A DNA stretch of 60,693 nt from a virus (IMGVR_UViG_3300029604_000003), one strand, 5' to 3'. Shown: positions 9,369-43,164, counted from the stretch's first letter. Numbers and translations are program-made. Notes: a model not told the origin generated them from the sequence alone.

Positions 9369-9742
9369 TATCCAGTGACCTCCTTCCAAGCATCTTTAGC
9401 TAGCCTATCAAATACCGGTTTTAAAGCCGGGTTAATATAGTCAACCCCCTGAACATATCCACCATTTCTAGTTCCATGTCCATATTGTAGAATAATAGCT
9501 ATATTCACATGGTTCACTACATTAGAATTTTTAAAAACCAAACTTACTGACCCATTGCCACGAACTATTTCATAATACCACGATGCTGCTGTTACTCCAG
9601 TGTCAACAGGAGTTGCAGCCTTGAGGGCAGCTACGCCTTCACGTCCGTACTTGTTTAATATACCAACGTTAACGCCTTCCAAAAGTTTTTCGAAATAATT
9701 ATCGAGCTTTTTAAAGTTACCCTCAAGTTTGCATCTGATCAT
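9368..9742 (-). CDS. HK97 gp10-like tail/neck component (124 aa)
   Basis: ALKAATPVDTGVTAASWYYE and LQYGHGTRNGGYV resemble the HK97 gp10 family (TG.TA.SW motif). The gene is translationally coupled to the TMP start. Confidence 0.5.
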   Translation of the reverse strand: MIRCKLEGNFKKLDNYFEKLLEGVNVGILNKYGREGVAALKAATPVDTGVTAASWYYEIVRGNGSVSLVFKNSNVVNHVNIAIILQYGHGTRNGGYVQGVDYINPALKPVFDRLAKDAWKEVTG

Positions 9743-9753: not shown

Positions 9754-10686
9754 TTATCTAATTAACGCAGAAGATTCTACAAATCCTGTATACTTCTTTC
9801 CTTTAATGGTTACAGCACAAAGTAACCATACAGATTTTTTATACTTGCTGAAGTATCCGTAGCATTCAACCTTTCTCCCAGCTGGAATTTCAACCATAAG
9901 CTTTTTGTTCCATCCAGCGTCAATACGCATAGGAGTTTTCTTAGAAGTTTTATATGAGCCCTTATAAAAACAGCTCAAATGTGCTGCATAACAAGTAGTA
10001 GTCGTTATTCCACATGGTGTGTTAATTACTGCATCTACTTCTTTCATAACGGCGTTGACATCATAATGCTTTTCTTTAAGATTCGATTTATAATCTTCTC
10101 CCCATTGACCAGCGATTACTTCTCTTGCTACTGTTTTAACTTCTTTACCGGCATGGCGGTGAGTGCTGGTACTGATCTTTGGCGGATCAGCATCGTATTT
10201 TGGCGTGATGAATCCTCTTATGAATTTGCCATTGATGCTTACCGTTCTCTTCTTAACAGAATCTTTATAATTACCTTCTGTTACGACAAAGTAGCCTTCA
10301 TTCCTATTAACATAGGTAACCATTCCAACATGCTTTGGTGTTCCTTTGTTGTCTCCAACTCCATTATCCTTCCAATCGTAAAGACAAGCATCTCCAATTT
10401 TAGGGATGTAACCATCATTCTCTTTCCAGCAACCAATTTTCTGAGCCTTTTTAATAAGATAATAACAGCTGCACTCAACTGGCATGATATCAGTATATCC
10501 AAGGGCAATTGCTACTGCAGACCAAGTTGTAGCGCACCACGCCATTCCAGGTTTCATAGTAACACCTCTTGGTTTCGTTTTCTGTTTGTTGTAAATATCA
10601 AGAATGGATTTATAAGATCCATCTTTTTCGTTTTTGCCAACCCAAGAATTAATAAGGTTAACAGCCGCTTTTCGTGTTCTGGCCAT
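9754..10686 (-). CDS. CHAP-domain peptidoglycan hydrolase with C-terminal SH3b-like domain (310 aa)
   Basis: Catalytic-type Cys (GMAWCATTWS) and His (PKHVGMVTY) have CHAP/NlpC-P60 spacing. The C-terminal ~65 aa (RIDAGWNKKLMVEIPAGRKVECYGY...KYTGFVESSALI) look SH3b-like. I moved the start to ATG 10686 (AAAGGGGTG RBS), which removes the overlap with the upstream gene. Confidence 0.7.
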   Translation of the reverse strand: MARTRKAAVNLINSWVGKNEKDGSYKSILDIYNKQKTKPRGVTMKPGMAWCATTWSAVAIALGYTDIMPVECSCYYLIKKAQKIGCWKENDGYIPKIGDACLYDWKDNGVGDNKGTPKHVGMVTYVNRNEGYFVVTEGNYKDSVKKRTVSINGKFIRGFITPKYDADPPKISTSTHRHAGKEVKTVAREVIAGQWGEDYKSNLKEKHYDVNAVMKEVDAVINTPCGITTTTCYAAHLSCFYKGSYKTSKKTPMRIDAGWNKKLMVEIPAGRKVECYGYFSKYKKSVWLLCAVTIKGKKYTGFVESSALIR

Positions 10687-10690
10687 ATTA

Positions 10691-11251
10691 TCACCCCTTT
10701 GTATGTAATTCTTTTTTTCTTCGTTCATTTTCTTTCTTTTGCCATCTACGGATTTCTTCATTGGTCATTTTCTTAGGAGGATTTGTTTTTACCGTGTACA
10801 ACTCTATGAGCATAAAAACGCGTCTAATATTCCATTTCTCACAGGGATCAAATGGTATTCTAGCCATAGCTAAGTAAGCATATATTAGCTCGCTTGTTAA
10901 TGTCTCCGGTTTCCCTTTATCGTCATCACCAATTGTAAAAACCCTAGATGCTGTAGCTGGGTCCTCGATATAGTCAATTATTTTTTTAAGTAAACTATCA
11001 TCAAGTCGCTTAAAAAACTCAACCTTATCGAAAGACCCAACTATCATACAGTACATATAATCAAGAAACTCTTCGTCGGTTAGAGTTCCCTCATCCATAG
11101 ATTTCAATAATGGTTTATGCCATACTTGCTCCCATTTTGAAATTGCTATTAGGGAATGCTCGAGCTTAATCTTAGTAGGTTTTACAACCTTCCCAAAAGT
11201 TTGAGTTTCTTGATCAAACGGCTCATATCCAGGAAGAATTAATTCGAGCAT
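10691..11251 (-). CDS. Putative tail assembly chaperone / Gp15-like protein (186 aa)
   Basis: Lies between the tail tube gene and the TMP, with an acidic body and a basic tail. The family assignment rests only on weak recollection. Confidence 0.35.
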   Translation of the reverse strand: MLELILPGYEPFDQETQTFGKVVKPTKIKLEHSLIAISKWEQVWHKPLLKSMDEGTLTDEEFLDYMYCMIVGSFDKVEFFKRLDDSLLKKIIDYIEDPATASRVFTIGDDDKGKPETLTSELIYAYLAMARIPFDPCEKWNIRRVFMLIELYTVKTNPPKKMTNEEIRRWQKKENERRKKELHTKG

Positions 11252-13571: not shown

Positions 13572-15467
13572 TTAGTTACCGCTGACTCCAGTTCCTGATC
13601 CAGCAGATGCCTTGCTAAGGTCTGCTGTAGGAATTTTTGTCTCGATTGCAATGGCAGATAATGGTTTGATCAGAGCACCAGAGATACGTGTCTCGATAAG
13701 ATACTTCTGAGCGTTGTAGTCGATATCGAAATCATCGAACATGTTAATAGCTCCGCCCTTGTCAGCACCAATGTTGTAATCCTGCAGGTTTACAATAATA
13801 CCCTGAAGAGCTAATGTGTCAGTCTTGTCTACACGGCTAAGACCTTCCATAACTGGAACGGAAACAATCTTAGATACACGGCACGCTGTAGCCAGCTTCT
13901 CGATGTTGTCGTAGATGATACGTCCATTCTTATCCTTCAGCAGTAAGCACTCAGTAATGATTGACTCTGGAGCGAACAGCTTTGGATTACCAGAACCCTT
14001 GTATTCGATACGTGCTCTTACACAAGCCTCAATAAATGCTGTAGCCTTCTCAGCTGCGGTTGACTCTTTTGTGATCGGAATAGCATACTTGATTGTGTAG
14101 AGATCAGCATCTTTCCAAATTGGACGGATATTGTCCTCTTTGATGTGATCGTCGCTGGATGTAAGACGTCCATCACCAACCAGAACTGCTCTTGCGATTT
14201 CCTCGTTTAGCATCATTCTCATTTCTGTTTTCAGCCAAACGATTACGTCGAAATCTGTAATATCAATTACATCATCACGATCAATCTTCTGTTTCTTGTA
14301 GATTGTCTGCGGGGTGGTTGTTCTCTTAAGTAATGAGAACACTTCTTCCTTCTTCAGTTTGCCTTTAATGTAACCTCTTGCACGAGCTTCATCCTCACGC
14401 AGGTCTGCAAATGTAGACTTGATTCTTGAGAATGGCGTGTGATGTACACCGTTCATTACCTCGGTTACCCATCCCTGATCTCTTGCAATGAACTCAGGCG
14501 GTGTGTTTAAGTTTTTGGCATCCGGGAACAGGTACTCAATATTTGTAATACCATGAGCAAGGAATGATTCTTTCATAGAACCATATCTCTTACCGTCCTC
14601 GATAATCTCCTGCATTTCGCTGTGGGACAGAACGTCTCCGTTGTCTGCATTGTTACCTTCGAATAAGTTATGTGCAATTGCACCCATGTCGTCATCCTCC
14701 TCTTCATATTCTTCGGAATCGTCATCATCTTTGTCAGGATCTTCGTCGTCATCTTTGTCAGGATCTTCGTCGTCATCCTCCTCTTCATATTCTTCGGAAT
14801 CGTCGTGATCCTCCTCTTCATCCTCGTCCTCGTATTCATCTTCGTCTTCGAGAGCGTTAGGATCTTCTGCTAATGCACTTCCTACAGCCATGTAGAAAGC
14901 ATCCTTCTGTTCTGGCGTCATTGTATCAACGACATCCTGAATGCTCTTATTATCCACTTCGTCTTCTCCTTTCTCATCTGAGTGCATAATCTCAAGATAC
15001 TCTCCCGAATAAATATATGCCTCATAATCATCATTGTCAATTGTGTCGCCATGTGCTAAGGCAACATCTTCAATGTATGCTCCTGGATTTGCTCCTGCAA
15101 GAACAAGGCTAAGTTCTTTAATTTCACCATGCTGAACATATGGCCCACGCTGCTGAAGATGATTAGCCCAAATGCTAAGCGAATCCATATCTCCGTGCTG
15201 AACAGCATCTTTCGCGATTTGACCATTATCTGAACCGTTGAAATATCCGTACGCATAAATACCATCTTTTCGGCATTCCATATAAGCATGCCCAAGCACG
15301 CCATTAATGTTATCGTGATCATGGTTATACACTAATGGAACTTTAGCGCCATCGATATCATCAAAAGCACCATGCTGAATAATTCTTCCATCAGCGCAAA
15401 GAATACCAAACTTTGTAGCCCAGCCCTTAAAGTCGCAATCGGCATACTTTGAGCGTTTAGCTCCCAT
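13572..15467 (-). CDS. Prohead protease - acidic scaffold-like linker - HK97-type major capsid protein fusion (631 aa)
   Basis: The N-terminal ~140 aa (FKGWATKFGILCADGRIIQHGAFDD..VPLVYNHD) match the HK97-family (S78) prohead protease pattern. Residues 201-260 are almost pure Asp/Glu. The C-terminal ~360 aa sit in the capsid position, and no separate protease, scaffold or capsid gene is present. Confidence 0.7.
   Translation of the reverse strand: MGAKRSKYADCDFKGWATKFGILCADGRIIQHGAFDDIDGAKVPLVYNHDHDNINGVLGHAYMECRKDGIYAYGYFNGSDNGQIAKDAVQHGDMDSLSIWANHLQQRGPYVQHGEIKELSLVLAGANPGAYIEDVALAHGDTIDNDDYEAYIYSGEYLEIMHSDEKGEDEVDNKSIQDVVDTMTPEQKDAFYMAVGSALAEDPNALEDEDEYEDEDEEEDHDDSEEYEEEDDDEDPDKDDDEDPDKDDDDSEEYEEEDDDMGAIAHNLFEGNNADNGDVLSHSEMQEIIEDGKRYGSMKESFLAHGITNIEYLFPDAKNLNTPPEFIARDQGWVTEVMNGVHHTPFSRIKSTFADLREDEARARGYIKGKLKKEEVFSLLKRTTTPQTIYKKQKIDRDDVIDITDFDVIVWLKTEMRMMLNEEIARAVLVGDGRLTSSDDHIKEDNIRPIWKDADLYTIKYAIPITKESTAAEKATAFIEACVRARIEYKGSGNPKLFAPESIITECLLLKDKNGRIIYDNIEKLATACRVSKIVSVPVMEGLSRVDKTDTLALQGIIVNLQDYNIGADKGGAINMFDDFDIDYNAQKYLIETRISGALIKPLSAIAIETKIPTADLSKASAGSGTGVSGN
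14688..14867 (-). repeat. Poly-acidic low-complexity tract with internal direct repeats (capsid fusion linker)
   Basis: The protein reads EDPNALEDEDEYEDEDEEEDHDDSEEYEEEDDDEDPDKDDDEDPDKDDDDSEEYEEEDDD. DNA blocks (cctcctcttcatattcttcggaatcgtc; atctttgtcaggatcttcgtcgtc) each occur twice. Confidence 0.85.
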
Positions 15468-17714: not shown

Positions 17715-18251
17715 TTAAGTTTTTTGAACGTATTTTGCACCACGGATAGAAGCTAACTCAGCATCTACCGCTTTCTTCTTTTCTGCAGTTCTGCTTGTAC
17801 GCCGTTTGATTGCTTCAGCCTTCCTGGTGTACTTAGCAGCTTTCTTTCCATAACGGTTCGCTTTCTTCCGAGCTCGTTCGGCTTTTTGAAGATTTCCGGT
17901 ATACCCAATATCTGTAATAGCGTGGTCACGCTTAACACGTTTTGCCTCTTCCTTTTCTTTGAACTTGACTCTTTTAGTCATAGCTTCTGAAGCTTTTCGT
18001 TCGTAATCAGATATACGTGACTTTGTCTTCTGAGAAGTTTGTTTCTTCATCTTAGATGCAAGTCGATCCGATTTTGACTCTAGATGCGATGCTCTTCTTC
18101 CAGAATGCTGATACGGATCTTTTCCCGATCCATACTTGTAACGGCCAGACCGCCTTGGCAGTCCATAATGTTCCAGATGGTCACCGCCTAAGCCCGAATG
18201 AACTAACGAAAACGTGCCATCGTCATTCTTTATTTTTACATACATAACCAT
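17715..18251 (-). CDS. Basic protein with HYGLPRRSGRYKYGSGKDPYQ motif (178 aa)
   Basis: The motif is read at aa 28-47, and the remainder is Lys/Arg-rich. The gene lies immediately downstream of TerL. Confidence 0.6.
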   Translation of the reverse strand: MVMYVKIKNDDGTFSLVHSGLGGDHLEHYGLPRRSGRYKYGSGKDPYQHSGRRASHLESKSDRLASKMKKQTSQKTKSRISDYERKASEAMTKRVKFKEKEEAKRVKRDHAITDIGYTGNLQKAERARKKANRYGKKAAKYTRKAEAIKRRTSRTAEKKKAVDAELASIRGAKYVQKT

Positions 18252-20009: not shown

Positions 20010-20585
20010 CTACTTCTTTTTCTTTTTCGTACTATTTGTTTCAGCTTTAACTGCTTCATTAATCATCTTCTGAGCGGCAGCATTGAGTTTACCCTTGATA
20101 TAAACTTTTCCTTGTTCTTTCACAACTTCTGTAACTGCAGGAACAATAATATCTTTCATAGCTTTATCAACTAACATCTTTGGTAATGGCTGCTTCTGCG
20201 GATGGTTTTTAAGGTATGTGGCTTCCATCTGATCTCGAGTATTTATTCGTTTAAGCTCTTCATCAGATAAAGTTTTTACATATGCCTTTTCGTTTCTGTA
20301 TTTAGATTTTTTTTGTTTCTTTTTATCAAGTTGGACTGCTTTGGTTCTTTCTCTTCTTTTGTTATTTTGTTTTTCAACTCCACTCTTTTTAGAAAAACTT
20401 TTTATAAACTTTTCACCAGCTTTAGCCGATGATCTAAGACTTTGATATGGTTCCTTCCCAGATCCCCATTTGTATCTTCCGGATCGTCTTGGTAATCCGT
20501 AATGTGCTAGATAATAGTCAGAGAATTCCTGATTGTTGACTAAGAAGTCTTTTACATCATCTGCTGAGTAATTAGTCATCGTCAT
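20010..20585 (-). CDS. Basic protein with HYGLPRRSGRYKWGSGKEPYQ motif (about 191 aa)
   Basis: The motif is read at track aa 34-54, with a Lys-rich C-terminal half. I chose the ATG at 20585, which follows AAAGGAGAG. The gene lies immediately upstream of TerL. Confidence 0.6.
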   Translation of the reverse strand: MTMTNYSADDVKDFLVNNQEFSDYYLAHYGLPRRSGRYKWGSGKEPYQSLRSSAKAGEKFIKSFSKKSGVEKQNNKRRERTKAVQLDKKKQKKSKYRNEKAYVKTLSDEELKRINTRDQMEATYLKNHPQKQPLPKMLVDKAMKDIIVPAVTEVVKEQGKVYIKGKLNAAAQKMINEAVKAETNSTKKKKK

Positions 20586-20946
20586 TCTCTCCTTTCTTAT
20601 CATCTTCGGAAACAGGATAGTACATTATGTACAATCTCCATTCCATTTCCTTAAGTTGCTCTTTCAAACTGTCCATTAATGAACCACTTGTTGGCGGATC
20701 GAATAACAGACGAGTTTTGATGTACACATAATCTTTTATCAAACTTGACTTCTGAGTGTCCTCTTCGAATTCACTCCAGACATTATCCGGACCAGTGATT
20801 CGGTATCCTTCTTTCGGACCAACTCCTAATTGAGTGAGAGCTGCAAATGCAGAATTGATATGAATGGTTAAATCCAAGTCAAACTGCTCAAAGTCGTCAG
20901 GACATCCAATAAGCTGCTTGATAGTCTTAAGAATGCTCTCTTCCAT
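20572..20946 (-). CDS. Head-tail connector / DNA-packaging-type small protein (124 aa)
   Basis: MEESILKTIKQLIGCPDDFEQFDLDLTIHINSAFAALTQLGVGP...FDPP resembles gp6/gp15-like connector families. The start at 20946 follows GAGGAGG. Confidence 0.4.
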   Translation of the reverse strand: MEESILKTIKQLIGCPDDFEQFDLDLTIHINSAFAALTQLGVGPKEGYRITGPDNVWSEFEEDTQKSSLIKDYVYIKTRLLFDPPTSGSLMDSLKEQLKEMEWRLYIMYYPVSEDDKKGENDDD

Positions 20947-21708: not shown

Positions 21709-21753
21709 ATACTTTTGTCTCCTTTCTAATATCTTTTGCCAAGGTTTCGAATA

Positions 21754-21879
21754 CTTTACGCCCTCTCTATAAGAGATCTTGGTATGTTTTAATGACCCTG
21801 AAAGGAGTCTTTAACTGAAAGAGGGTCCTTCTATGTGCGACAAAAGAAGACCAAGATCTCTTATAGAGAGGGCGTAAAG
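21754..21879. repeat. Perfect 30-bp inverted repeat (21754-21783 / 21850-21879) with 66-nt spacer
   Basis: ctttacgccctctctataagagatcttggt is the exact reverse complement of accaagatctcttatagagagggcgtaaag. The spacer contains a nested gaccct...agggtc repeat. Confidence 0.9.
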
Positions 21880-22062
21880 TCGCTAACCTAAAATCCATTT
21901 TGACAGGATTTTAACCCCCGGAGAATTTTCAAGGAGGCCGGCGATGACAGAGGGGGTGCTATTTTTACGACCCCCCTCCGGGTGCTAGCTGAGACACTCG
22001 AACGCTATTTAGAGTCTTCGTGTTTGTGAAAGCTCTAAAAACATTCAAATCTCAACTTTTGT

Positions 22063-22401
22063 TTACTTGTTTCTATGGATTTTTGGTTTTGTTTCTCCGT
22101 TTACACGAGTTACTCTAAAGTATTGGCCCATGAAATCGTTATTGAGAATCTTGTTGATAGCAATAGCCAAACGCTCTTCATACTCAGCATCACTCATATC
22201 TGATGTGTCAGTATCAAAGTATCTAGCTAAGTATCCTGAAGTGCAATAGCCTTTTGACTCGTCAAACCTGTACCAATTGTCGAAATCAACAAAAGGATCA
22301 AAAGGGTTATCCACTGTTGTGATCCATATATGTAATGTATCATTGCGATCAGCAGGACTTTGCGTTGCTAACTTAAGTGATTCATCTTCTGCATTGCTCA
22401 T
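22063..22401 (-). CDS. Hypothetical acidic protein (112 aa)
   Basis: Minus-strand ORF coupled to the upstream gene. No motif recognised. Confidence 0.55.
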   Translation of the reverse strand: MSNAEDESLKLATQSPADRNDTLHIWITTVDNPFDPFVDFDNWYRFDESKGYCTSGYLARYFDTDTSDMSDAEYEERLAIAINKILNNDFMGQYFRVTRVNGETKPKIHRNK

Positions 22402-22419: not shown

Positions 22420-25119
22420 CTATAAATATTTATTGATAGTTGATACAGAAAGTCCAGTTGCTTCAGCGACTTCAGCTTGTGTATAACCGAAGTTAAGCAT
22501 AGACTTGATTCGTGAAACTTGTGAAGCATTAACTGTAACAGCTTTTCTAGGTGAAGCGAGTTGCTTAACCTTGTCTGAATCAGCATTGTTAAGTATTTGC
22601 TCAAGCTTTGATGTACTGATTGCACCAGCTTGAATTGCTTGCCATTCTCTTTCAGATATGTCGATCTGAACATTAGACTTAGATGCGCCAACTTTTGCTC
22701 TAGCTGCTGTTAAAGACTGCTGACCAGCTCGTTTGATTTCATCCGGTGTCCAATCAGGATTAGCTGCTTGCTTCTTCTTTAATGTCTTGTTAGCTATGAT
22801 TTGGGCCTGTCGCTCCTTTGGTGCGTTCTGTAATGCCCTGTTTAACTTAGCATTAAGACTTGCAACTTCTGCTGAATACACTGTTTTAGCTTGAGCATTC
22901 ATCTCAATATTCTTAGTTGCAACCTGATTCTTTCTTGCTAAATTAGCCATATGCTTAAGGGCATTGGCATAGTCGGCATATGCGACCTCTTTTGGATTCG
23001 GGTCCTTAGATAATAAGGTACCTGCATCCTTAGTGGCCGCCATCTTGGTTGTTTTTACAGTAGCCAGTTTTTCACCATTTGATTCCCAACTACCGTCTTT
23101 GTTTCTTTTCCAGTCCGTATAGGTACGCCCCGTAGCCTCTGGATGTACTTCACCAGTCTTAGGATCGATATCCTTTAAACGAATCTGTTTTGTTTCTGGA
23201 ACATACGCCACTGACTTAGCCCGGGATAGGAGTGTGGATGCACCAGCATCACTGGCACCCTGGTACTTCTTCTTTAACTCGGCTATACGGTTCTCTTCAA
23301 AGGACCTCTTATAGTCCAGTCCATGCTTAGGGGCATCGATTACAACCATTGAGTGACGTACCGCTCTTGCAATTTCTTCAGGCTTTGCACCTTTCAGTGT
23401 CATATCATTAATCAGGTTGGAGATCTTACCCATTTCCAATCCTTTACGTTTCTCAGGAAGTTTTGCTGTAACTCCTTCAATGCCACGGTAGGCAATCTTA
23501 GGATCGAAATCTTTTAAACCAACATAAGCACTAATATCAGAAGTAGTTATCTTAACTTTGGATTTTGGTGAATTAGACGGAATTACTACTGCAGTGTCAC
23601 CATCAAAGTCAGCTCCTGACAATCTTTCAGCAACCTTGGAGTTGATACCGACAGCATCAATTGCATTACCAAGCATTGCTCTTCCTTGTGGATTCTTATT
23701 GTTTACTTTGAGTTCCGGAATCTCGAATGTACCACCATGCGGATAACGAACAAGACATACTGTTTCTCCATTCTTATATGATGGTGCATATATCTCGTTA
23801 TCTTTCAGAGAAGAAACGGGTAATATTACCTTAGAGCTTTGTCTTGGAAGTGCTGCTGCTTTAAGATCCACTGCCTGGCTGTCGCAACCTTCAGCAAAGT
23901 CTGCTAACAACTTCCGTTTAACAACTGGGTTTGTCATTTTGAGGATCTTATCAAGCTCATCCTGACGATTGTCAATCGATTGCTTAAGCTGCTTCTTGAT
24001 CAATGGAAGCTGCTGCTTTGACAGGAACTGAGAAGCAAGGTTCTTAGAATAGTGATCCCAATCGCCTTCCTCTTTCAGCTTATTGATAGCTCCGAGCTTT
24101 TCATTTCCATCTTTATCTTTGTAATGGTACTGACCGTTTGCCTTAATTGTTGCTCCAAATGGGTTGTCCGGATCATCTTTCATCTTCTTGAAGACATCCA
24201 TCTTTGGTACATCACTTGTCTTGTTGGTATTGAATATAACATCAACGCCTTTTGGCATGTCATCTGAATAGATTGCCATACCTTTCAGATAATGAGTGCC
24301 ATCAACAGCGATTCGCACCTGTGCATAATGTGAGTCTCCAAGATCCAGATCTGCAACTCCTCTTCGAAGCTCAATAACACCATCTTTCTCTAATCCGCCT
24401 TTATCACCATATCTTACAGCTACTCGGCTTGACGAGATACTTGATGGATACTCTGGTGCCCAGAATGTTGTTCCACCATCATGAGAATACTCATTTACTG
24501 GCTGAATCTTGTCAGTGTGCTGCTGAACATCTTTCCATTCAGTTCCTGGAGGGCAAAGAACTTTTGTGGTCGTGTACTGGCCTTTCTGATTGATCTGTGG
24601 AACTCTGACTGAATGTACTTCATAACCAGCTTCTTTTAAGATCTGAAGAGATACATCCAATCTTGTTTTGGTAATTCCCATTTCTCTTTCGACTCCAGTA
24701 CCAACATCGACAAAATTCTTAGTGCCGACTCTCTTGGCTAAAGTCTCTGCTGCATTGATACATGCATCTTTCTTAAGCTTTTCACCCTGGTTCAATAACG
24801 ATCGAACTGTCGACTCTTTTGTTGCAGAGTCAAACATCATTTCAGCTATTTTGACATTGGAATAGCCATGCTCTTTCAACTTCATAGCTCTATTGATTCG
24901 ATCTACTTTCTCAGCATTAACATAAATTGACTGCTTATTTCGAAACTCAGTCGTTTTCATACCCATGAATGCAGCAATCTCTTTTTCACTTTTTCCTCGA
25001 GCTTTCATCTCTTGGACAGTCCTTAAGAATTCTGCATTATGCTGGTATGGATTATCCCCAGAACCCCAAGGATAACGACCGGAATGGCGTTTAGTGCCAT
25101 AATGTGCTAAGTGGCTCAT
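22420..25119 (-). CDS. Single-chain two-barrel RNA polymerase (YonO / QDE-1-like), 899 aa, with N-terminal HYG..GRY.WGSG motif and HTH-like ends
   Basis: RLSGADFDGDTAVV occupies aa 499-512, with DFDGD encoded at 23596-23610. It is preceded by CLVRYPHGGTFEIPELKV, and an upstream barrel-like segment reads HYLKGMAIYSDDMPKGVDVIFNTNKTSDVPK. The C-terminal GYTQAEVAEATGLSVSTINKYL looks like a helix-turn-helix. Confidence 0.7.
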   Translation of the reverse strand: MSHLAHYGTKRHSGRYPWGSGDNPYQHNAEFLRTVQEMKARGKSEKEIAAFMGMKTTEFRNKQSIYVNAEKVDRINRAMKLKEHGYSNVKIAEMMFDSATKESTVRSLLNQGEKLKKDACINAAETLAKRVGTKNFVDVGTGVEREMGITKTRLDVSLQILKEAGYEVHSVRVPQINQKGQYTTTKVLCPPGTEWKDVQQHTDKIQPVNEYSHDGGTTFWAPEYPSSISSSRVAVRYGDKGGLEKDGVIELRRGVADLDLGDSHYAQVRIAVDGTHYLKGMAIYSDDMPKGVDVIFNTNKTSDVPKMDVFKKMKDDPDNPFGATIKANGQYHYKDKDGNEKLGAINKLKEEGDWDHYSKNLASQFLSKQQLPLIKKQLKQSIDNRQDELDKILKMTNPVVKRKLLADFAEGCDSQAVDLKAAALPRQSSKVILPVSSLKDNEIYAPSYKNGETVCLVRYPHGGTFEIPELKVNNKNPQGRAMLGNAIDAVGINSKVAERLSGADFDGDTAVVIPSNSPKSKVKITTSDISAYVGLKDFDPKIAYRGIEGVTAKLPEKRKGLEMGKISNLINDMTLKGAKPEEIARAVRHSMVVIDAPKHGLDYKRSFEENRIAELKKKYQGASDAGASTLLSRAKSVAYVPETKQIRLKDIDPKTGEVHPEATGRTYTDWKRNKDGSWESNGEKLATVKTTKMAATKDAGTLLSKDPNPKEVAYADYANALKHMANLARKNQVATKNIEMNAQAKTVYSAEVASLNAKLNRALQNAPKERQAQIIANKTLKKKQAANPDWTPDEIKRAGQQSLTAARAKVGASKSNVQIDISEREWQAIQAGAISTSKLEQILNNADSDKVKQLASPRKAVTVNASQVSRIKSMLNFGYTQAEVAEATGLSVSTINKYL

Positions 25120-35387: not shown

Positions 35388-35545
35388 TTTGACCCCTCCT
35401 TATTATATGCTGGGTTATCTTTGCACATGTATCTACATGCTCCCTGATTTCTTACCTGAATATAACACTCATCGAAATAAGGGCACGACATCTCTTGTTC
35501 AGTATATGTATAATCTTCTCTAGATGTATGATCAAATTCCTGCAT
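35384..35545 (-). CDS. Small Cys-containing protein (53 aa), not in ORF track
   Basis: MQEFDHTSREDYTYTEQEMSCPYFDECYIQVRNQGACRYMCKD... It has a GGAGG RBS, and its stop overlaps the next ATG. Confidence 0.35.
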   Translation of the reverse strand: MQEFDHTSREDYTYTEQEMSCPYFDECYIQVRNQGACRYMCKDNPAYNKEGSK

Positions 35546-35555
35546 AATAACCTCC

Positions 35556-35741
35556 TTAATGCAAATCTACTGACCATGATACAGCTATGCACATTCCGAT
35601 GATAATAATCACAAATTCTGAAATCAAGTCAATATCATGTTTCTTGAAAATACATTTTACGGTATGTACCACACCAGCAAACATAAGACCGCCTAAAATG
35701 AATAAGCTCAAAGTTCTGAAAAATATAAACACGCTATTCAA
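35556..35741 (-). CDS. Small two-pass membrane protein (about 58-61 aa)
   Basis: Two hydrophobic segments (LSLFILGGLMFAGVV; ISEFVIIIIGMCIAV). The start is ambiguous (TTG or GTG). Confidence 0.4.
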   Translation of the reverse strand: MNSVFIFFRTLSLFILGGLMFAGVVHTVKCIFKKHDIDLISEFVIIIIGMCIAVSWSVDLH

Positions 35742-35883
35742 TTCTCATCACCACCCCTGTCTGGATGTTCACATAATACCTGTGATGCTTGTATACTACC
35801 AAGTCTCCATCCCAATCTCCACCTGTGAGATAAAGTTTCTTCATAATTGCCGGTTTTCTAAACCAATCGATAATTCTGTTCAT
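35734..35883 (-). CDS. Small hypothetical protein (49 aa)
   Basis: MNRIIDWFRKPAIMKKLYLTGGDWDGDLVVYKHHRYYVNIQ... The start ATG at 35883 follows AGGAGGAATCAAA. Confidence 0.4.
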   Translation of the reverse strand: MNRIIDWFRKPAIMKKLYLTGGDWDGDLVVYKHHRYYVNIQTGVVMRIE

Positions 35884-35997
35884 TTTGATTCCTCCTATTT
35901 TTCGAAAAATGAAAGGAGATGCAAATGGGATATGGACCCACATCTCTGGTATGGGGATACCAGTGCACTGCTATTGTGCTATTACGCATCTCTTCTC

Positions 35998-36022
35998 ATT
36001 ATAAGCTTTGTTTTTTATGCGA
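35998..36022 (-). promoter_or_regulatory. Promoter-like motif TCGCA-N14-TATAAT
   Basis: The minus strand reads TCGCA TAAAAAACAAAGCT TATAAT, followed by GAGAAG, immediately after the 36024 stop. Confidence 0.5.
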
Positions 36023-36023
36023 G

Positions 36024-36290
36024 TTATTCAGGTTTATTCATTGGGAAGTTCTCATCCCTAGACATTTTTATCCAGTTGTAGAATCGCTCAAAACAATTAG
36101 GGCAAAGATCCATAACTGCTGGCATGTCAGTAAGCTTATCGCCACTCTGTGTGCTTAACTGAGAAGCTGACTCCGGAAACTTGTTTTCTCCAGCATTATT
36201 TTTCCACCATACAGTAATGCCATCATATACCGGGTTCTCTTTTTCACAGTATACATTGCCACATAAATCGCATTTACAAATTCCTCTCAT
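36024..36290 (-). CDS. Zinc-ribbon protein, paralog pair member (88 aa)
   Basis: CKCDLCGNVY...YDGI.VWW...MDLCPNCFERFYNWIK is a paralog of 36290-36541. Confidence 0.55.
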   Translation of the reverse strand: MRGICKCDLCGNVYCEKENPVYDGITVWWKNNAGENKFPESASQLSTQSGDKLTDMPAVMDLCPNCFERFYNWIKMSRDENFPMNKPE

Positions 36291-36541
36291 TATTTGTTCT
36301 CCTCCTTAAATGATTTAATCCAGTCACAGAACCGTCCAAAGCAGGCAGGACATACATCCATCATCTCTGGAGATCCTTTCATTGTTTCTCCATTCGGTTC
36401 AATAATATCATACTTTCGGTTTCCATGCATAGTAGTGCCAGTCTCTTGATCAGTATACCAAATCATGATTCCATCATAGTTCTTGTTCTCATCTTGGTGA
36501 TACACTTTTCCACAAATATCACATTTACAAAATCCAATCAT
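36290..36541 (-). CDS. Zinc-ribbon protein, paralog pair member (83 aa)
   Basis: MIGFCKCDICGKVY...YDGIMIWY...MDVCPACFGRFCDWIK. The start is trimmed to the ATG at 36541, because the longer track ORF overlaps the upstream gene. Confidence 0.55.
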   Translation of the reverse strand: MIGFCKCDICGKVYHQDENKNYDGIMIWYTDQETGTTMHGNRKYDIIEPNGETMKGSPEMMDVCPACFGRFCDWIKSFKEENK

Positions 36542-36554
36542 ACCTAGACCCCCC

Positions 36555-37025
36555 TTAAAATTCCTTATAGTATTTTGACGTAAGCTTCTTGATTTTCTTA
36601 ACAAATGACTTACTCTTGCTGCTTTTAGCATAGCTAGTTTTGTCAGTATAATCTTCAAAATCAATATCGTATTCACTGCAATAATTCCATGTAGAAGTAA
36701 CATATACACTTTCCCTAACGTTTCCGCCATAAGCATTGGACGCTGTATAATCCACCTTCCAAGTGATCGTCCTATAGCTATCAAGAATACCGCACGCCGC
36801 ATACACTTCAAAATTATCCTTATTTAGCACATATTTAACCTTACTAATTTTCTTTATTTTAAATGAATCTGGGTTTAACAGTTCACTATCCTGGAAGACA
36901 GCTAATGTGTAAGCTAAATTCTTTTCGGCCTTGGTGTATTTAGTTTTTGCATTTACCGGTTGAACTATAGTCAAACATACAATGACTGCAAGTAATAAGT
37001 ATAACCCTTTACTAATTTTCTTCAT
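36555..37025 (-). CDS. Secreted protein with N-terminal signal peptide (156 aa)
   Basis: MKKISKGLYLLLAVIVCLTIVQPVNA|KTKY has a basic n-region, a hydrophobic core and an AxA-like cleavage site. The start ATG at 37025 follows GGAGGAATTTAAA. Confidence 0.55.
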   Translation of the reverse strand: MKKISKGLYLLLAVIVCLTIVQPVNAKTKYTKAEKNLAYTLAVFQDSELLNPDSFKIKKISKVKYVLNKDNFEVYAACGILDSYRTITWKVDYTASNAYGGNVRESVYVTSTWNYCSEYDIDFEDYTDKTSYAKSSKSKSFVKKIKKLTSKYYKEF

Positions 37026-37026
37026 T

Positions 37027-37434
37027 TTAAATTCCTCCATTTTTATTCTGCTCTTCTTCACGTCTTTGGCGCATAAAGTCATTGAGCTGAATAAGTATTT
37101 TCTTTTCAATCGTATCGCCGATACCAGGTATGGTTGTAAGTCTGTTATACTTAACCCATTCAATCAGCTCTTTAATGTCTTTAGCTCCTCTTTTAACTAA
37201 GAATTTTCTAGTTCTAGGTGTAATTGACTGTAGATATCTGAGATCGTATGGATCTTTATAGACTTCTTCACCACGGAATAGCCGTACCTTAGTAATTATC
37301 TCATATATTCGCTGTGTAGAGACATATTCGTCCATCGCTATCATGCGAACGCTGTCTCCACTCTGCCAACGATTGAAGATTTCCAGATCGCGTTCCGTTA
37401 CAGTCCAGTTACTCATTTTTCTTTTGTCGCACAT
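37027..37434 (-). CDS. Putative transcription factor: sigma region-4-like HTH plus helix-hairpin-helix (135 aa)
   Basis: VTERDLEIFNRWQSGDSVRMIAMDEYVSTQRIYEI resembles sigma-70 region 4 / LuxR-type HTH. TIPGIGDTIEKKI is an HhH (GIG) motif. Confidence 0.45.
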   Translation of the reverse strand: MCDKRKMSNWTVTERDLEIFNRWQSGDSVRMIAMDEYVSTQRIYEIITKVRLFRGEEVYKDPYDLRYLQSITPRTRKFLVKRGAKDIKELIEWVKYNRLTTIPGIGDTIEKKILIQLNDFMRQRREEEQNKNGGI

Positions 37435-37445
37435 AGAAGAACCCC

Positions 37446-38129
37446 CTATTCTGTTACTTTCTTTATAGCAATATCAATTGTGTTCTTAATAGGCATACGC
37501 ATATCTGCCGCATTGTCGAGTTCTTTCTTCTCCACAGAGATGCTGAATCCTAATTTATCCTTAACAGAATCGAAATGAACTCCTAATCCTGTTATAGCTA
37601 CACCTGTTTTGACACCGGTTTCAGACTTAATATTGTTGAGCCCTTTATAAACCGCCCTTACTGAGTCAAAGGCATTGTTCACAATATCATGCTCTACTGG
37701 ATCGTCTTTAGGGAAGCTAACACTTGCACCGTCAGTTGTAACCTCGATGTTTGCTTTCAGCTGAGAATTTGTCTCAATTTTATTGATGTATGTATAGATG
37801 TCGGATATATCTTTAGCCACACACTCAGTCCCGCATTTCACTGAATCATCTATTTTGAACATCAGGTATACGCACATACTTTCGATATCTTGGTATAAAC
37901 CAATATCAGTAATATTATAGATATTAGACTTTAAATCGTTAATGCCAAAAGCGTCCAGGATTTCTTTTTCTGATTCCACCCCTAAACGATCTAAAAGTTC
38001 GAACCATATAACATTGCCTGATAAGACTCCATAATTACTTTGAGTAATCGTGTAAAGTCTATCGATCAGCGCATTGACAGAACTCTTTTTATATGGAATC
38101 ATGTCACATTTCAAATAAACTTCTTTCAT
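37446..38129 (-). CDS. Hypothetical protein, paralog pair A (227 aa)
   Basis: Shares N-terminal ~95-aa similarity with 38146-38691 (V..L..R...I.....GVL(S/T)G..IW...L..L....E.EI(L/I)DAFG). The start ATG at 38129 has the GGGGGTCAAAATG context. Confidence 0.55.
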   Translation of the reverse strand: MKEVYLKCDMIPYKKSSVNALIDRLYTITQSNYGVLSGNVIWFELLDRLGVESEKEILDAFGINDLKSNIYNITDIGLYQDIESMCVYLMFKIDDSVKCGTECVAKDISDIYTYINKIETNSQLKANIEVTTDGASVSFPKDDPVEHDIVNNAFDSVRAVYKGLNNIKSETGVKTGVAITGLGVHFDSVKDKLGFSISVEKKELDNAADMRMPIKNTIDIAIKKVTE

Positions 38130-38145
38130 TTTGACCCCCACTTTT

Positions 38146-38691
38146 TTAATCAATCATTTTTCTCATAACATCATCCAGTGCGTTCTCAATTGGAATCGTT
38201 ATATCTACAGCTTCGTCGAGTGTAAACTTCTGAATAATGATCCGGTATACAAGGTTGTCCTTAGAAGCTTCAATTTCTATACCGTCGGTTGTAATTTTAG
38301 CAGCTATTTTGACATCTGTCTTCTCCTGAAGTTCATTAAGCCTTGCGTAGACTTTTGCAAATGCCTCAGCAGCTTTACTATTGTCGATATTTTCTTCATT
38401 GGCATTACGTACATTGAACAGTAAGTATGTGTCATATGTCTTAGCATCTTTGTACAATACAACCGACTTGATATCATATATTTTGTCATCTAAACTGAAA
38501 AGACCAAAAGCATCAATGATCTCCTGTTCAGTGTTAATGTCTAAAGCGTGTAAGATATTTCTCCATATCATTTGCCCTGTGAGGACACCATCAGTGCTAT
38601 TGATAAGCGTCTCAAATCGTCTGAGCAACACGTTAACGGAATCCATCTTCTCCCGTACAAAGTCACTGTCTAAGTATATTGCGTTCTTCAT
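38146..38691 (-). CDS. Hypothetical protein, paralog pair B (181 aa)
   Basis: Paralog of 37446-38129. The start ATG at 38691 follows AAGGAG. Confidence 0.55.
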   Translation of the reverse strand: MKNAIYLDSDFVREKMDSVNVLLRRFETLINSTDGVLTGQMIWRNILHALDINTEQEIIDAFGLFSLDDKIYDIKSVVLYKDAKTYDTYLLFNVRNANEENIDNSKAAEAFAKVYARLNELQEKTDVKIAAKITTDGIEIEASKDNLVYRIIIQKFTLDEAVDITIPIENALDDVMRKMID

Positions 38692-38828
38692 TTCTTTTTC
38701 TCCTTCTTTACAAATATATTTGCCAGACATTTACCGCATAAGTTTTGCGTTGGTACGCCTTGAAAGAACTCTAACTCTGTAAGTTCGTTTTCCTCACATA
38801 CCTCACCGCATCCATCACATCTATACAC
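38688..38828 (-). CDS. Small zinc-ribbon protein (46 aa), not in ORF track
   Basis: The GTG-start ORF YRCDGCGEVCEENELTELEFFQGVPTQNLCGKCLANIF... has CxxC...CxxC. Its stop overlaps the next ATG (ATGA). Confidence 0.3.
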   Translation of the reverse strand: MYRCDGCGEVCEENELTELEFFQGVPTQNLCGKCLANIFVKKEKKK

Positions 38829-39171
38829 TGTAACCTCCCTGGTTATACTTCGTAGCACCATAAACTTTGTTAAGCATCCTTTTCATTTCCTCGGCTGTCA
38901 TAGATCCTATGTCACTTTTATTGCTTCCTATAGGCTGTCCAATATATTCTATAACTGGCTTACCCTTGAACTTAAGCTGGCCATCCATAGTTAAATCGGT
39001 ATTGTACTTGTAAAACGCGTGATCCTTGAAATACTCCACAAGGGCATCCATATGTTCATGTTCAATAGCAATGAAGTCTGCATCTGGGTTTTTGTTATAT
39101 TCTGTCGCTACAGCGATTGAAGCGGTTGCTATATAGCATGTATAATGGCTATTGTAATTTGTAGTACTCAT
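38821..39171 (-). CDS. Hypothetical early protein (116 aa)
   Basis: Minus-strand ORF with the GGAAGGAGTCAAAATG start context. Confidence 0.55.
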   Translation of the reverse strand: MSTTNYNSHYTCYIATASIAVATEYNKNPDADFIAIEHEHMDALVEYFKDHAFYKYNTDLTMDGQLKFKGKPVIEYIGQPIGSNKSDIGSMTAEEMKRMLNKVYGATKYNQGGYSV

Positions 39172-39268
39172 TTTGACTCCTTCCTACGGTCCTAGACCGC
39201 CCTTAGTAGCACCACTGCTGCCAAGGGTAATCTAATACACCGTCACTAAACATTATTTGTTCATCGAT

Positions 39269-40237
39269 TCATCTCTGTGATACTTCGCCGTAAATGCAAC
39301 CATCACAGTTGAAGTCGATCAGTAATGTTCTTTCATTTTCACCAGTTTCTTCATTCGGAACCATAACCCACTTGGTCAGGAATGTTACATTGTTGTCGAA
39401 CTTGCCATAGTCCGGATCTTTCTGGCTTCTGTATCTCCAACCATGTGTAAGACCAATGTCAGTAGGCTTCAGACCAATCATACGGTATACGTCATTAAGT
39501 GTCAGGATTCCTTCGCATTTTAACCGTGTATCTGCTTCCTTCTCACGCTGTGCAAGCATGAATTCATTTTGAGGGTTGTCATTGAACCACTCAGTAGAGT
39601 TCTCTCTGTTAAAGAGTCTTGCATACGGTGAGCCACCAAAGTTTCTGATAATCTCCTGCTCCTCAGTTACCTTCTTTTTCTCACCTGTCTCCGGATCTGT
39701 CTCAGTCTTCTTAACTGTCTTCTTTTCAGATCCATACAGCATTTCCTTGTCAACTTCTTCGCCGTACTTGTTGATTACATTTTGACGGTATGTCTGATAA
39801 GCCTTAACAATTGCTGCACAAGATGCTGCTAATGCCGCCTGACGCTGTTTCATAATATGATGAGATCCAAGAATGAGCCCGATAGATGCTACCTCAAGAA
39901 TTGCAGGTCCAACATAAAGCTTAACATACTCTAATGCTGTTTTACGCTTTAAGAGAACCATATCGTTTGCTGCATCTTCTCTTGTGTAAGGCTTATCGAG
40001 AGAATCCGGATCTTCTTCATACTTTGCTACTGTCTCTACGATCTTCTGTTTTGTAGCTTCTTCGTTTCTCTGTACTGCTGCAACTTTGAGTGTTGCTCTC
40101 TGTGTCATAATCAGAGCTCCAATACCTGCTCCAATACCTGCAATTAGCATGATCTCTGGAGAGTTCATTTTGGTCCAGGCCTTAGTATGGCCTACTACTG
40201 TTGATAAACTTGTTACTGCTGTGTCTAATGCTTTCAT
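39269..40237 (-). CDS. Two-TM membrane protein, paralog family member 1 (322 aa)
   Basis: Shares an architecture with 43165-43995 and 44010-44840: a short N-terminal segment, TM1 (IMLIAGIGAGIGALIM), TM2 (VGPAILEVASIGLILGS), a helix, then a C-terminal domain containing GW. From unverified memory this may be Pfam DUF6353. Confidence 0.6.
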   Translation of the reverse strand: MKALDTAVTSLSTVVGHTKAWTKMNSPEIMLIAGIGAGIGALIMTQRATLKVAAVQRNEEATKQKIVETVAKYEEDPDSLDKPYTREDAANDMVLLKRKTALEYVKLYVGPAILEVASIGLILGSHHIMKQRQAALAASCAAIVKAYQTYRQNVINKYGEEVDKEMLYGSEKKTVKKTETDPETGEKKKVTEEQEIIRNFGGSPYARLFNRENSTEWFNDNPQNEFMLAQREKEADTRLKCEGILTLNDVYRMIGLKPTDIGLTHGWRYRSQKDPDYGKFDNNVTFLTKWVMVPNEETGENERTLLIDFNCDGCIYGEVSQR

Positions 40238-40456
40238 TTATTTTTCCTCCTTATTTACAATTTCTAAGTACTGCTCTCTCCAATTGAATACGTTGGTTAA
40301 GCAATATGATCCAAAACCGATTCTATCGTCATCCTCGCCAAGCAGATGGTAAAGAATTTCGAAATACGGTTCTTCTTTTGTTCCGGAAACGATGATAATC
40401 GCCTTATCAACTTTTGCTTTATCGGCTTTTACAGTTGCCGAATTTTTAGTTCCCAT
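40238..40456 (-). CDS. Hypothetical early protein (72 aa)
   Basis: Minus-strand ORF with the GGAGGAATTCAAAATG start context. Confidence 0.5.
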   Translation of the reverse strand: MGTKNSATVKADKAKVDKAIIIVSGTKEEPYFEILYHLLGEDDDRIGFGSYCLTNVFNWREQYLEIVNKEEK

Positions 40457-40474
40457 TTTGAATTCCTCCTTCTG

Positions 40475-41440: not shown

Positions 41441-41452
41441 TTCTATACCTCT

Positions 41453-41650
41453 TTATTTTGTTGTTTCCAATGTGATACTCCTGTTGCACTGCGGACACTC
41501 CACGTAAGAATCCAAAAATACTGGTGAGTGTTTAATGTCTGGCAACTTATAATGACAGTGCTTAATATCTTCTTTCTCATAAGAGAATCTGCAGCCACAG
41601 TACTCACATTTAGTTACTGTTTTAGTTCCTGGTTCAATAATTTTGATCAT
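41453..41650 (-). CDS. Small zinc-ribbon protein, tandem triplet copy 3 (65 aa)
   Basis: MIKIIEPGTKTVTKCEYCGCRFSYEKEDI...CPQC. Confidence 0.6.
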   Translation of the reverse strand: MIKIIEPGTKTVTKCEYCGCRFSYEKEDIKHCHYKLPDIKHSPVFLDSYVECPQCNRSITLETTK

Positions 41651-41662
41651 TTCTATACCTCC

Positions 41663-41887
41663 TTATGCTCTCTGCATTTTAATTGAAATAACCGTAAGAT
41701 CCTTTCCGCACTGTGGGCACAATACATAATACTCAAATAATTTTGGAAGTTTTATAATACTTGGCGCACATCTATCAGGTGTCTTGTGTGGACGACTCTG
41801 AATATCTTCTTTCTCATAAGAGAACTTACAACCGCAGCTATTGCATTCGGCCACGGTTTTAGTTCCTGGTTCAATAATTTTAATCAT
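41663..41887 (-). CDS. Small zinc-ribbon protein, tandem triplet copy 2 (74 aa)
   Basis: MIKIIEPGTKTVAECNSCGCKFSYEKEDI...CPQC. The first ~90 nt are near-identical to copy 3. Confidence 0.6.
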   Translation of the reverse strand: MIKIIEPGTKTVAECNSCGCKFSYEKEDIQSRPHKTPDRCAPSIIKLPKLFEYYVLCPQCGKDLTVISIKMQRA

Positions 41888-41898
41888 TTTTGTCCTCC

Positions 41899-42716: not shown

Positions 42717-42739
42717 TTTAGCTCCTTTCTAAGAAAAAA

Positions 42740-42770
42740 GTCTAAGACCATGTTTCCATGATCCCAGACC
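42740..42770 (-). terminator. Intrinsic terminator, GAAA-loop hairpin family
   Basis: The minus strand reads GTCTGGGATCATG-GAAA-CATGGTCTTAGAC (13 pairs including G-U) followed by TTTTTTC. Confidence 0.7.
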
Positions 42771-42795
42771 TTAAGATTTCCAATCTTGTTAAGTA

Positions 42796-43162: not shown

Positions 43163-43164
43163 CC

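Follow-up and report, generated by a model that had tools for sequence, protein, structure and literature searches.

Single-chain relatives of the cellular RNA polymerase (RNAP) have rarely been studied by experiment, and the phage enzymes characterized so far are YonO, gp66 of the crAss-like phages, and two enzymes of P23-45. YonO is an experimentally shown DNA-dependent RNAP that transcribes the late genes of SPbeta (PMC5467207), and gp64, a small single-chain two-barrel phage RNAP, recognizes its own promoter motif without a sigma factor (PMC10770324). The signature of the two-barrel superfamily includes an invariant Arg and Pro (the equivalents of Rpb1 R446/P448) located approximately 35–45 residues before the DbDGD loop (PMC2919709). 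Here, we analyzed a gene for such an enzyme in the viral sequence IMGVR_UViG_3300029604_000003, the whole 60,693-nt stretch of which is referred to below as the window. The listing of open reading frames (ORFs) and the translation place the gene at 22420–25119 on the minus strand, which the preliminary description of this locus had left unstated. The gene starts with ATG, has its stop codon at 22420–22422, and encodes a protein of 899 aa, which is a single-chain two-barrel RNAP by fold class, motifs, and family membership.

In the hmmscan search, the profile of PHROG 4291 ('RNA-dependent RNA polymerase') matched aa 3–899 of the protein (E = 0, 1184 bits; profile positions 11–905 of 909). The Pfam scan of the 899-aa protein gave only the C-terminal helix-turn-helix (HTH) above the cut-offs. 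The sequence searches of the PDB, run with the single protein and with a profile, returned a local GxDFDGDT match to the virion RNAP of P23-45 (8h2m, phmmer) and matches of the HTH type. As these searches yielded little beyond DFDGDT and the HTH, structure prediction was needed. For this, the full-length protein was modeled with AlphaFold2 on an alignment of 54 sequences (mean pLDDT 81.6, pTM 0.70), and a core-only model was obtained for aa 131–710 (pLDDT 81.8). The Foldseek comparison of the full model with the PDB placed QDE-1 at the top (2j7n, E = 3.3e-8; 7y7s, 8e-8); the weaker matches were mostly the largest subunits of multisubunit RNAPs, and the crAss-like gp66 appeared at E = 0.13. With the core model, seven PDB matches were obtained at E ≤ 1e-3 and all seven were single-chain two-barrel RNAPs, the E-values being 2.2e-9 for QDE-1, 4.3e-7 and 4.6e-6 for gp64 (8f72 and 8f5m), and ~1e-5 for plant RDR2.

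The two barrels were located from the AlphaFold2 strands and from the conservation among 54 homologues (54–84% identity); all their features are on the minus strand. The first, beta-like barrel region (aa ~233–350; 24070–24423), which may be labeled 'DPBB-B' by analogy with the domain order of QDE-1-type enzymes, was recognized by its strand pattern and invariant columns. It contains K279-G280 (nt 24280–24285) and K300, both within the peptide HYLKGMAIYSDDMPKGVDVIFNTNKTSDVPK (aa 276–306), and K311, K326, D246, D257, and D293 are further invariant residues of this barrel. These Lys and Asp residues are candidates for the equivalents of Rpb2 K979, K987, and D837, the two Lys and one Asp that the superfamily keeps in its beta-like barrel. 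The second, beta-prime-like barrel region ('DPBB-A', aa 428–514; 23578–23838) has six predicted strands and carries the motif R458-Y-P460-H461 (nt 23737–23748), within the peptide CLVRYPHGGTFEIPELKV (aa 455–472), followed by DFDGD, the predicted catalytic (Mg-binding) loop (aa 504–508; 23596–23610), within the peptide RLSGADFDGDTAVV (aa 499–512). DFDGD thus provides the DbDGD loop of the superfamily, and the R458/P460 pair, 46 residues ahead of D504, provides the upstream Arg and Pro. K279, G280, K300, R458, P460, H461, D504, D506, and D508 were invariant in 54 of the 54 homologues, and this invariance of the catalytic motifs indicates that the signature is under selection and is no chance string. 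After the second barrel, two long helices with the invariant HSMVVID (aa 556–599; 23323–23454), seen in the predicted secondary structure and the invariant columns, form a candidate bridge-helix region in the model.

These results agree with the preliminary description in its central point. Its identification of a single-chain two-barrel RNAP is borne out by the PHROG 4291 match, by the Foldseek matches to QDE-1, gp64, and RDR2, and by the invariant R.P, DFDGD, and KG motifs. The similarity to double-psi beta-barrel polymerases that it had looked to in an AlphaFold model is present, and the peptides quoted in it were each found at the residues given there, with DFDGD at 23596–23610.

HTH-like modules at both ends of the protein had also been proposed, and both were recovered, the N-terminal one with weaker matches. 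The C-terminal HTH (aa 865–899; 22423–22527, minus strand), which includes the peptide GYTQAEVAEATGLSVSTINKYL (aa 878–899), was assigned by Pfam and PHROG HTH families and resembles region 4 of sigma-70. It passed the Pfam cut-offs of Sigma70_r4_2 (PF08281; 27.6 bits against 25.7 for aa 877–899, a match of only ~23 residues at profile positions 25–47 of 54) and of HTH_3 (25.4 bits against 23 for aa 876–899). The N-terminal helical region (aa 28–131; 24727–25038, minus strand), which consists of helices in the AlphaFold2 model, contains two HTH-like repeats at aa 45–59 (EKEIAAFMGMKTTEF) and aa 85–96 (GYSNVKIAEMM being aa 85–95). This region gave a weak Pfam match to MerR_1, a profile match to the designed HTH-like repeat protein 8vd6 (E = 3.5e-4), and, in BFVD, a match (TMt 0.75) to an HTH protein of 95 aa from a phage. 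The chain begins with a conserved N-terminal tag, HLAHYGTKRHSGRYPWGSGDNPYQ (aa 3–26; 25042–25113, minus strand), which is predicted to be disordered, the pLDDT being <50 for aa 1–27. The tag residues H6, G8, S13–Y16, G19–G21, and Q26 were invariant among the 54 homologues, and the tag heads the RNAP in 76 of 80 IMG/VR loci.

QDE-1 of Neurospora crassa and plant RDR2, which matched best in structure (2j7n, 7y7s, 7eu1, and 7rqs; E from 2e-9 to 2.5e-5, probability 1.00), share with the phage protein the single chain, the beta-like barrel preceding the beta-prime-like one, and the DbDGD loop, at 11–13% sequence identity and TM-scores of ~0.3. These eukaryotic enzymes have no HTH domains fused to them and use no promoters when they copy RNA or single-stranded DNA, whereas the phage protein is encoded by a double-stranded DNA phage genome with a promoter-like array. 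The second-best structural match was gp64 (8f72 and 8f5m; E = 4.3e-7), the non-virion RNAP of the P23-45 type. With ~590 aa, it shows no HTH extensions in the match, and its promoter is GC-rich in contrast to the AT-rich tripartite motif described below. YonO (839 aa) is comparable in size to the phage protein and is likewise a single-chain two-barrel enzyme from a phage, in which R-S-P-H is followed after 43 residues by DNDGD, as R-Y-P-H is followed after 46 residues by DFDGD in the phage protein. Unlike the phage protein, it has a Cys-rich C-terminus in place of the HTH and no N-terminal tag. The hhalign comparison of the family profile with YonO gave a probability of 0.3% and a spurious match of 18 columns, YonO being used as a single sequence, which makes the test a limited one. 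The term 'YonO-like' used in the preliminary description therefore holds at the level of motifs and finds no counterpart at the level of profiles. The virion RNAPs gp66 of phi14:2, a crAss-like phage (6vr4), and gp96 of P23-45 (8h2m) are two-barrel enzymes as well, and the DFDGDT segment aligns with gp96. Both belong to far larger proteins than the phage protein (a chain of 2,166 aa and a fusion to the tape measure, respectively). The homologue of Lactococcus phage 1706 is labeled as a virion protein, and the protein of the window is a candidate for virion residence. The virion RNAP of N4 is a T7-like enzyme, not a two-barrel one, and can be compared by analogy only.

The family to which this protein belongs is large and widespread. 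The tblastn search found full-length homologues with 40–49% identity in 250 sequenced phages, and in 249 phage records the coverage of the protein was 80% or more. These phages infect Arthrobacter, Gordonia, Streptomyces, Lactococcus, Curtobacterium, Microbacterium, Rhodococcus, and Faecalibacterium, and two annotations are in use for the homologues, 'helix-turn-helix DNA-binding domain protein' and 'RNA-dependent RNA polymerase'. The profile search of 1.84 billion representative proteins gave 4,007 clusters (50% identity) at E ≤ 1e-3, of which 1,232 also passed E ≤ 1e-30; the best 150 matches listed were full-length proteins of 870–1,070 aa. An identical RNAP protein is encoded in the IMG/VR contig UViG_3300045988_023759 (59,498 bp). 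The relatives in PHROG 4291 (clusters BI, AM, AU, DJ, and others; Lactococcus 1706-like phages; Faecalibacterium phage Oengus) have the same domain order, tag, and C-terminal HTH, and the same synteny of helicase, VRR-Nuc endonuclease, Cas4-like exonuclease, RNAP, small ORF, and cos. The window phage differs from them in two extra small tag-bearing proteins of its own lineage and in its host, which is probably a Lachnospiraceae gut bacterium, as judged from the name of a relative.

The 1706 protein was listed by Ruprich-Robert and Thuriaux in 2010 among five distant 'YonO-like' families (PMC2919709). Koert et al. (2021) described the family as the signature gene of an actinophage–Firmicutes phage supercluster and reported that it matches the Pfam RdRP in HHpred, has the DxDGD loop, and carries an HTH domain at either end (bioRxiv 10.1101/842583). 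The family and its HTH ends have thus been predicted before, and the protein of the window is a further member and not a new family; the cross-phylum promoter-like motif, the cos assignment, and the linked small partner gene are added here. Our literature search for virion proteomics or promoter descriptions of the family gave nothing beyond two in silico papers.

The promoter-like motif was found by searching the intergenic regions, and the window was scanned with the pattern YRCA-N14-TATART-RRGA. Twelve copies were present where 0.88 were expected, and 0 of 100 shuffles reached this number. All 12 copies are on the minus (coding) strand in the early/middle region at 35.4–49.3 kb. The copies, 28 nt each, are located at 35398, 35994, 43134, 45041, 45678, 46187, 47527, 47920, 48119, 48682, 48951, and 49259 (region 35398–49286). 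Their consensus is TCGCAaAtAa.tCat..c.TATAATgaGAa, and the general architecture can be written as TCGCA-N5-(T)ACA-N5-TATAAT-GAGA. CGCA and TATAAT are 14 nt apart, a spacing of the upstream element that indicates a geometry other than that of sigma-70; TTGACA at 16–18 nt and a TG extension are both absent. Several copies directly follow hairpins with GAAA tetraloops and T-runs (for example, 42737–42772, 47960–47981, and 48994–49011), and the hairpins of these terminator–promoter cassettes covary. Terminator-like sites were enriched in the motif region (17 versus 9.1 ± 2.8 expected), and sigma-70-type sites occurred there at the level of chance (67 versus 61.9 ± 7.5).

The motif was found in register in the window phage and in four other RNAP-encoding phages, the genomes having 34–59% GC. 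Since a single strict regular expression under-counts the phage-specific variants in 1706 and RosaAsantewaa, the sites were aligned to a consensus for each genome. Lactococcus phage 1706 has 10 sites with the consensus caCAtgTTTTACAta.aCTATAGTAGAAAG, Streptomyces phage RosaAsantewaa (59% GC) has six (TCGCAAGaTcTACAaGGccTtAaATGAGACCCC), Arthrobacter phage Tribby has 6–7 (tCGCGTAAATTACAaGGGCTATAATgaaA), and Gordonia phage Schwartz33 (54% GC) has eight (TTCGCA..a..TTACACGTCCTATAATGAGACCCC). In each genome, the sites begin right after the tail and lysis genes, ahead of the small early genes. The -10-like hexamer of RosaAsantewaa is mostly TTAAAT, with T for A at position 2. In the 80 IMG/VR loci, sampled as the RNAP gene ±10 kb (1.17 Mb), the strict motif gave 11 matches on the RNAP strand and 0 on the other, and five of these matches are located 0.9–1.0 kb upstream of the RNAP start. 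Five loci (L031, L042, L045, L061, and L066) have a copy at ~9000–9090, immediately upstream of the endonuclease–exonuclease–RNAP operon, and Tribby has an extra relaxed match (3 mismatches) at position 55137 of its record, just upstream of the same operon. This suggests that the RNAP gene is under its own type of promoter in some relatives; the window has no such copy. The motif gave 0 matches in a 50-kb control sequence of SPbeta. The motif strings were not found in the literature searched, and two genomic papers on these phages are silent on promoters.

The simplest reading of this array, which is conserved across two host phyla, is that the sites are read by the signature polymerase of the supercluster, for which its fused HTH modules would be a plausible means. 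TCGCA, TACA, and GAGA are outside the sigma-70 hexamers and yet have been kept in phages of both phyla, and no sigma factor was found among the 40 ORFs of the window that were scanned.

The position of the RNAP gene was then considered in terms of the packaged genome. The first and last 99 nt of the window (1–99 and 60595–60693) are identical, which indicates that the window is the genome of a cos phage, ~60.6 kb long, in a circularly closed assembly. Nearly all the genes are on the minus strand. In the direction of transcription, the genes for the primase-polymerase, annealing protein, helicase, VRR-Nuc-type endonuclease, Cas4-like exonuclease, and RNAP are followed by an ORF of 112 aa (22063–22401) and a gap of 354 nt (21709–22062), the last two being as previously described. 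After the gap come PHROG 4259, HNH, the connector, a 197-aa protein, TerL, a 178-aa protein, and the portal, and then the protease–capsid fusion and the tail genes, which run across the window ends. The linear cos genome of each sequenced relative closes on the right with two genes, the RNAP gene and the small ORF, and opens on the left with the block from PHROG 4259 to TerL.

In the deposited sequences of 1706, RosaAsantewaa, Tribby, and Schwartz33, the right end consists of a G-run, TC.CGCAAA.., a C-run, and ..GCATCGCC..CCT. The corresponding part of the window (21930–21990) reads as a G-run, TCGTAAAAATAGCA, a C-run, and then TCTGTCAT, CGCCGGCCT, and CCTTGAAAA in succession, so that it carries the right-end string of the relatives followed by the left-end-like CCTTGAAAATTCTCCGGGGG. 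The cos cleavage site was predicted here with the 9-nt 3' overhang CGCCGGCCT (21935–21943, minus strand) as the right genome end, the left end starting at 21934. Approximately 20 independent IMG/VR contigs break off at the equivalent point of this conserved end sequence, mostly with ...CAT. An overhang of this type, 9 bases at the 3' end, has been described for the cluster AM phages (PMC5513430), and the record of ReqiPoco6 also annotates a 9-base 3' end in agreement with the predicted cut. As the 354-nt gap is the cos region, the RNAP gene is penultimate at the right end, 485 nt from it in virion DNA, and the late operon is at the opposite end. The 'early–late boundary' of the preliminary description is therefore an artifact of the circular assembly across cos.

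The cos region has some further features. An inverted repeat with 38-nt arms (21753–21790 and 21843–21880; 92% complementary, 52-nt spacer, no T-run after it) is located between cos and the first late gene, which starts at 21708. It could be a site for the terminase or a regulator; alternatively, the late message could form an RNA structure here, at its 5' end. The promoter-like string TATAAGAGA inside this repeat does not keep the register of the consensus and was taken as a chance occurrence. The string TCGCAAAA in the loop of the cos-proximal hairpin of G-run and C-run was considered as the TCGCA element of the promoter, which would have provided a binding site for the RNAP at the DNA end, and rejected, as the loop varies (TCTCCAAAA, TCTCAAAAA, TCGTCAAAA, and others) among ~30 contig ends. 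The scans for sigma-70 promoters and terminators around the RNAP gene gave nothing above chance.

We favor, with modest confidence, the reading that the protein is a promoter-specific DNA-dependent RNAP for the early/middle genes, its template being probably DNA. The chain would consist of the disordered tag, the two HTH-like repeats, the beta-like and beta-prime-like barrels, the bridge-helix-like helices, a helical C-terminal arm, and the HTH resembling sigma region 4. The enzyme alone would recognize double-stranded promoters of the type TCGCA-N5-(T)ACA-N5-TATAAT-GAGA through its fused HTH modules, transcription starting near GAGA. It would drive the early and middle (right-arm) genes and, in some relatives, its own nuclease–RNAP operon. 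The late genes would probably be reached by read-through across the joined cos or by way of another factor; no terminator-like site was found on the minus strand between the RNAP gene and the late genes, so that such read-through could follow the joining of the cos ends.

More tentatively, we propose that this one-polypeptide transcriptase with sigma-like HTH modules may be packaged in the virion and injected, and that it would initiate at the tripartite promoter upon such delivery. The tag is a candidate signal for packaging or ejection, and this is the least certain step of the model. In the GenBank record of phage 1706 (EU081845), orf75, a homologue with 40% identity over the N-terminal 119 aa aligned, is labeled 'structural protein'; the record holds 11 such labels in addition to the portal, the capsid, and two tail proteins. 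ReqiPoco6 gp106 is labeled as structural by its similarity to the 1706 protein. According to the abstract of the 1706 paper, 15 structural proteins were reportedly identified by liquid chromatography–tandem mass spectrometry (LC-MS/MS). The occurrence of the tag in two basic proteins flanking TerL was also counted toward virion delivery.

Some observations weigh against this reading or one of its parts. In the search of the relatives' other proteins, the tag was found at the RNAP N-terminus only, and the extra tag-bearing proteins are confined to the lineage of the window phage, so the idea of a 'packaging tag' has little to rest on. The label 'structural protein' in 1706 also covers the small replication-region orf62 and orf71, and the structural set may thus include contaminants. 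Some members of the family occur in very long contigs of up to 366 kb, and Oengus is a prophage with an integrase, the induction of which cannot rely on a virion-borne enzyme. As to the polymerase itself, the two enzymes that match best in structure, QDE-1 and RDR2, are RNA-dependent. The TM-scores of the structural matches are low (0.29–0.34), which means that the domains are arranged differently or that their arrangement is uncertain, the fold class being nonetheless clear. TATAAT is perfect in the motif copies, so the sites could be used by the host sigma-A polymerase together with a phage factor. The literature searched yielded no biochemistry or transcript mapping for any member of the family.

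The preliminary description had put forward another role, that of a non-virion, YonO-like enzyme made from host-transcribed early/middle genes and transcribing the late structural operon. YonO of SPbeta acts in this way (PMC5467207), temperate relatives need a host-driven start-up, and in the circularized genome the gene is directly upstream of the late operon, in the same direction and with no terminator-like site in between on the minus strand. Degenerate look-alikes of the promoter also precede the late operon at the left ends of RosaAsantewaa (CGCG-N5-TACA-N5-TAAGGT) and 1706. However, the gap is the cos region and the adjacency arises only after end-joining. No clear copy of the motif was found before the late operon of the window, and the consensus sites listed for the other phages include none in that position either; the strong copies all precede early/middle genes. 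The deposition of the 1706 homologue as a structural protein and the lack of profile-level similarity to YonO also speak against this role, which we now regard as unlikely.

The perfect -10 hexamer in phages of low GC would also suit an explanation in which the host sigma-A RNAP reads the array, possibly with a phage activator binding TCGCA/TACA, and the two-barrel enzyme serves some other role with nucleic acids. It could then be a true RNA-dependent RNA polymerase or an enzyme of the replication module that forms primers or R-loops. The top structural neighbors are RNA-dependent polymerases, PHROG and RefSeq use the label 'RNA-dependent RNA polymerase', and the gene closes a block for replication and recombination, in which it comes after the genes for the helicase, VRR-Nuc, and the Cas4-like exonuclease. 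Yet TTGACA is missing at the -35 position, the upstream elements have a non-sigma-70 spacing, and TCGCA, TACA, and GAGA, which are no part of the sigma-70 hexamers, are kept from phages of Firmicutes to those of Actinobacteria, with TTAAAT prevailing at the -10-like position in RosaAsantewaa. Moreover, the phage already has a primase-polymerase. The database label is probably misleading, because it derives from homology to eukaryotic RNA-dependent RNA polymerases with no assay, and QDE-1 itself copies DNA as well (PMC9508822). We consider this explanation improbable. An inactive relic, that is, a DNA-binding or structural protein that has kept the fold and lost polymerization, would fit the virion-protein label in 1706 and the many records that say only 'helix-turn-helix DNA-binding domain protein'. 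It is very hard to reconcile with the catalytic-signature residues, all of which are invariant in the 54 homologues, and with the full-length conservation in ~4,000 clusters (50% identity), which together indicate strong purifying selection on the active site, and we give it hardly any credence.

The RNAP gene has a constant neighbor in the acidic 112-aa ORF that follows it (PHROG 4303; 22063–22401, minus strand), in which no Pfam domain was found. In 85 of 87 loci from phages of Firmicutes and Actinobacteria, including 1706, ReqiPoco6, RosaAsantewaa, Tribby, and Schwartz33, a homologue of this ORF comes directly after the RNAP gene. The ORF is a strictly linked partner gene of the RNAP, and its product is a candidate accessory factor.

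The two basic tag-bearing proteins flank the TerL gene on the minus strand. The motif HYG..R.SGRY.WGSG..PYQ, which the preliminary description had noticed in the RNAP and in two ORFs of the head-morphogenesis region (20010–20603 and 17715–18251), is indeed common to them. The 197-aa protein (20010–20603; 25% K+R, tag at aa 31–54) is encoded directly upstream of TerL and the 178-aa protein (17715–18251; 28% K+R, tag at aa 25–48) directly downstream, and the form of the tag in the RNAP and both of these proteins is HYGLPRRSGRYK[WY]GSGK.PYQ. The BLASTP similarity was significant over the ~24-aa tag alone, and a whole N-terminal domain common to the RNAP and the small proteins was rejected. Among the 484 homologues of the 197-aa protein, some of which are misnamed 'RNA dependent RNA polymerase', no domain annotation was found, and the assignment of the tag-bearing proteins as small terminase subunits was rejected on this ground.

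Other genes of the window include a very long tape measure gene (570–9389, minus strand; 2,939 aa, PHROG 4372) and, upstream of it in the tail module, an endolysin-like gene (9754–10761). The head maturation protease (13572–15467, minus strand; 631 aa, PHROG 3270) corresponds to the fused protease–major capsid gene of the relatives. Three paralogous DUF6353 proteins (39269–40237, 43165–43995, and 44010–44840, minus strand; Pfam E from 1e-43 to 1e-52) are encoded in the early/middle region. Downstream of the tail module, there is a radical SAM domain protein (53393–54730, minus strand; PHROG 1802, E = 2e-64), an unusual cargo for a siphophage. A 135-aa protein (37027–37434, minus strand) gave sub-threshold matches to the Mor activator (23.4 bits, cut-off 24.9) and to a helix-hairpin-helix (26.7, cut-off 27), and on the basis of these matches it is a possible activator of the late genes for the host polymerase.

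Two annotations can be corrected from this analysis: the label 'RNA-dependent RNA polymerase' is probably misleading for the family, and the position of the gene at an early–late junction is produced by circular assembly across cos. Enzymes of this kind inform both the evolution of the universal transcription enzyme and the reading of promoters without sigma factors. In comparison with the few characterized phage enzymes, the PHROG 4291 family is far larger, with ~4,000 clusters (50% identity) and 250 isolated phages, many of them in the SEA-PHAGES collections, and its hosts Arthrobacter, Gordonia, Streptomyces, and Lactococcus are tractable. The motif supplies a directly testable candidate pair of enzyme and promoter. 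If the proposed pairing is true, these phages would possess a compact transcription system, orthogonal and functional across Gram-positive phyla, with HTH and sigma-4-like modules fused to a two-barrel core, and possibly a new class of virion-delivered polymerases in siphophages. If the enzyme is indeed injected with the virion DNA, early transcription in thousands of siphophage lineages would do without the host polymerase, and the promoter would have traveled together with its enzyme across the phages of Firmicutes and Actinobacteria.

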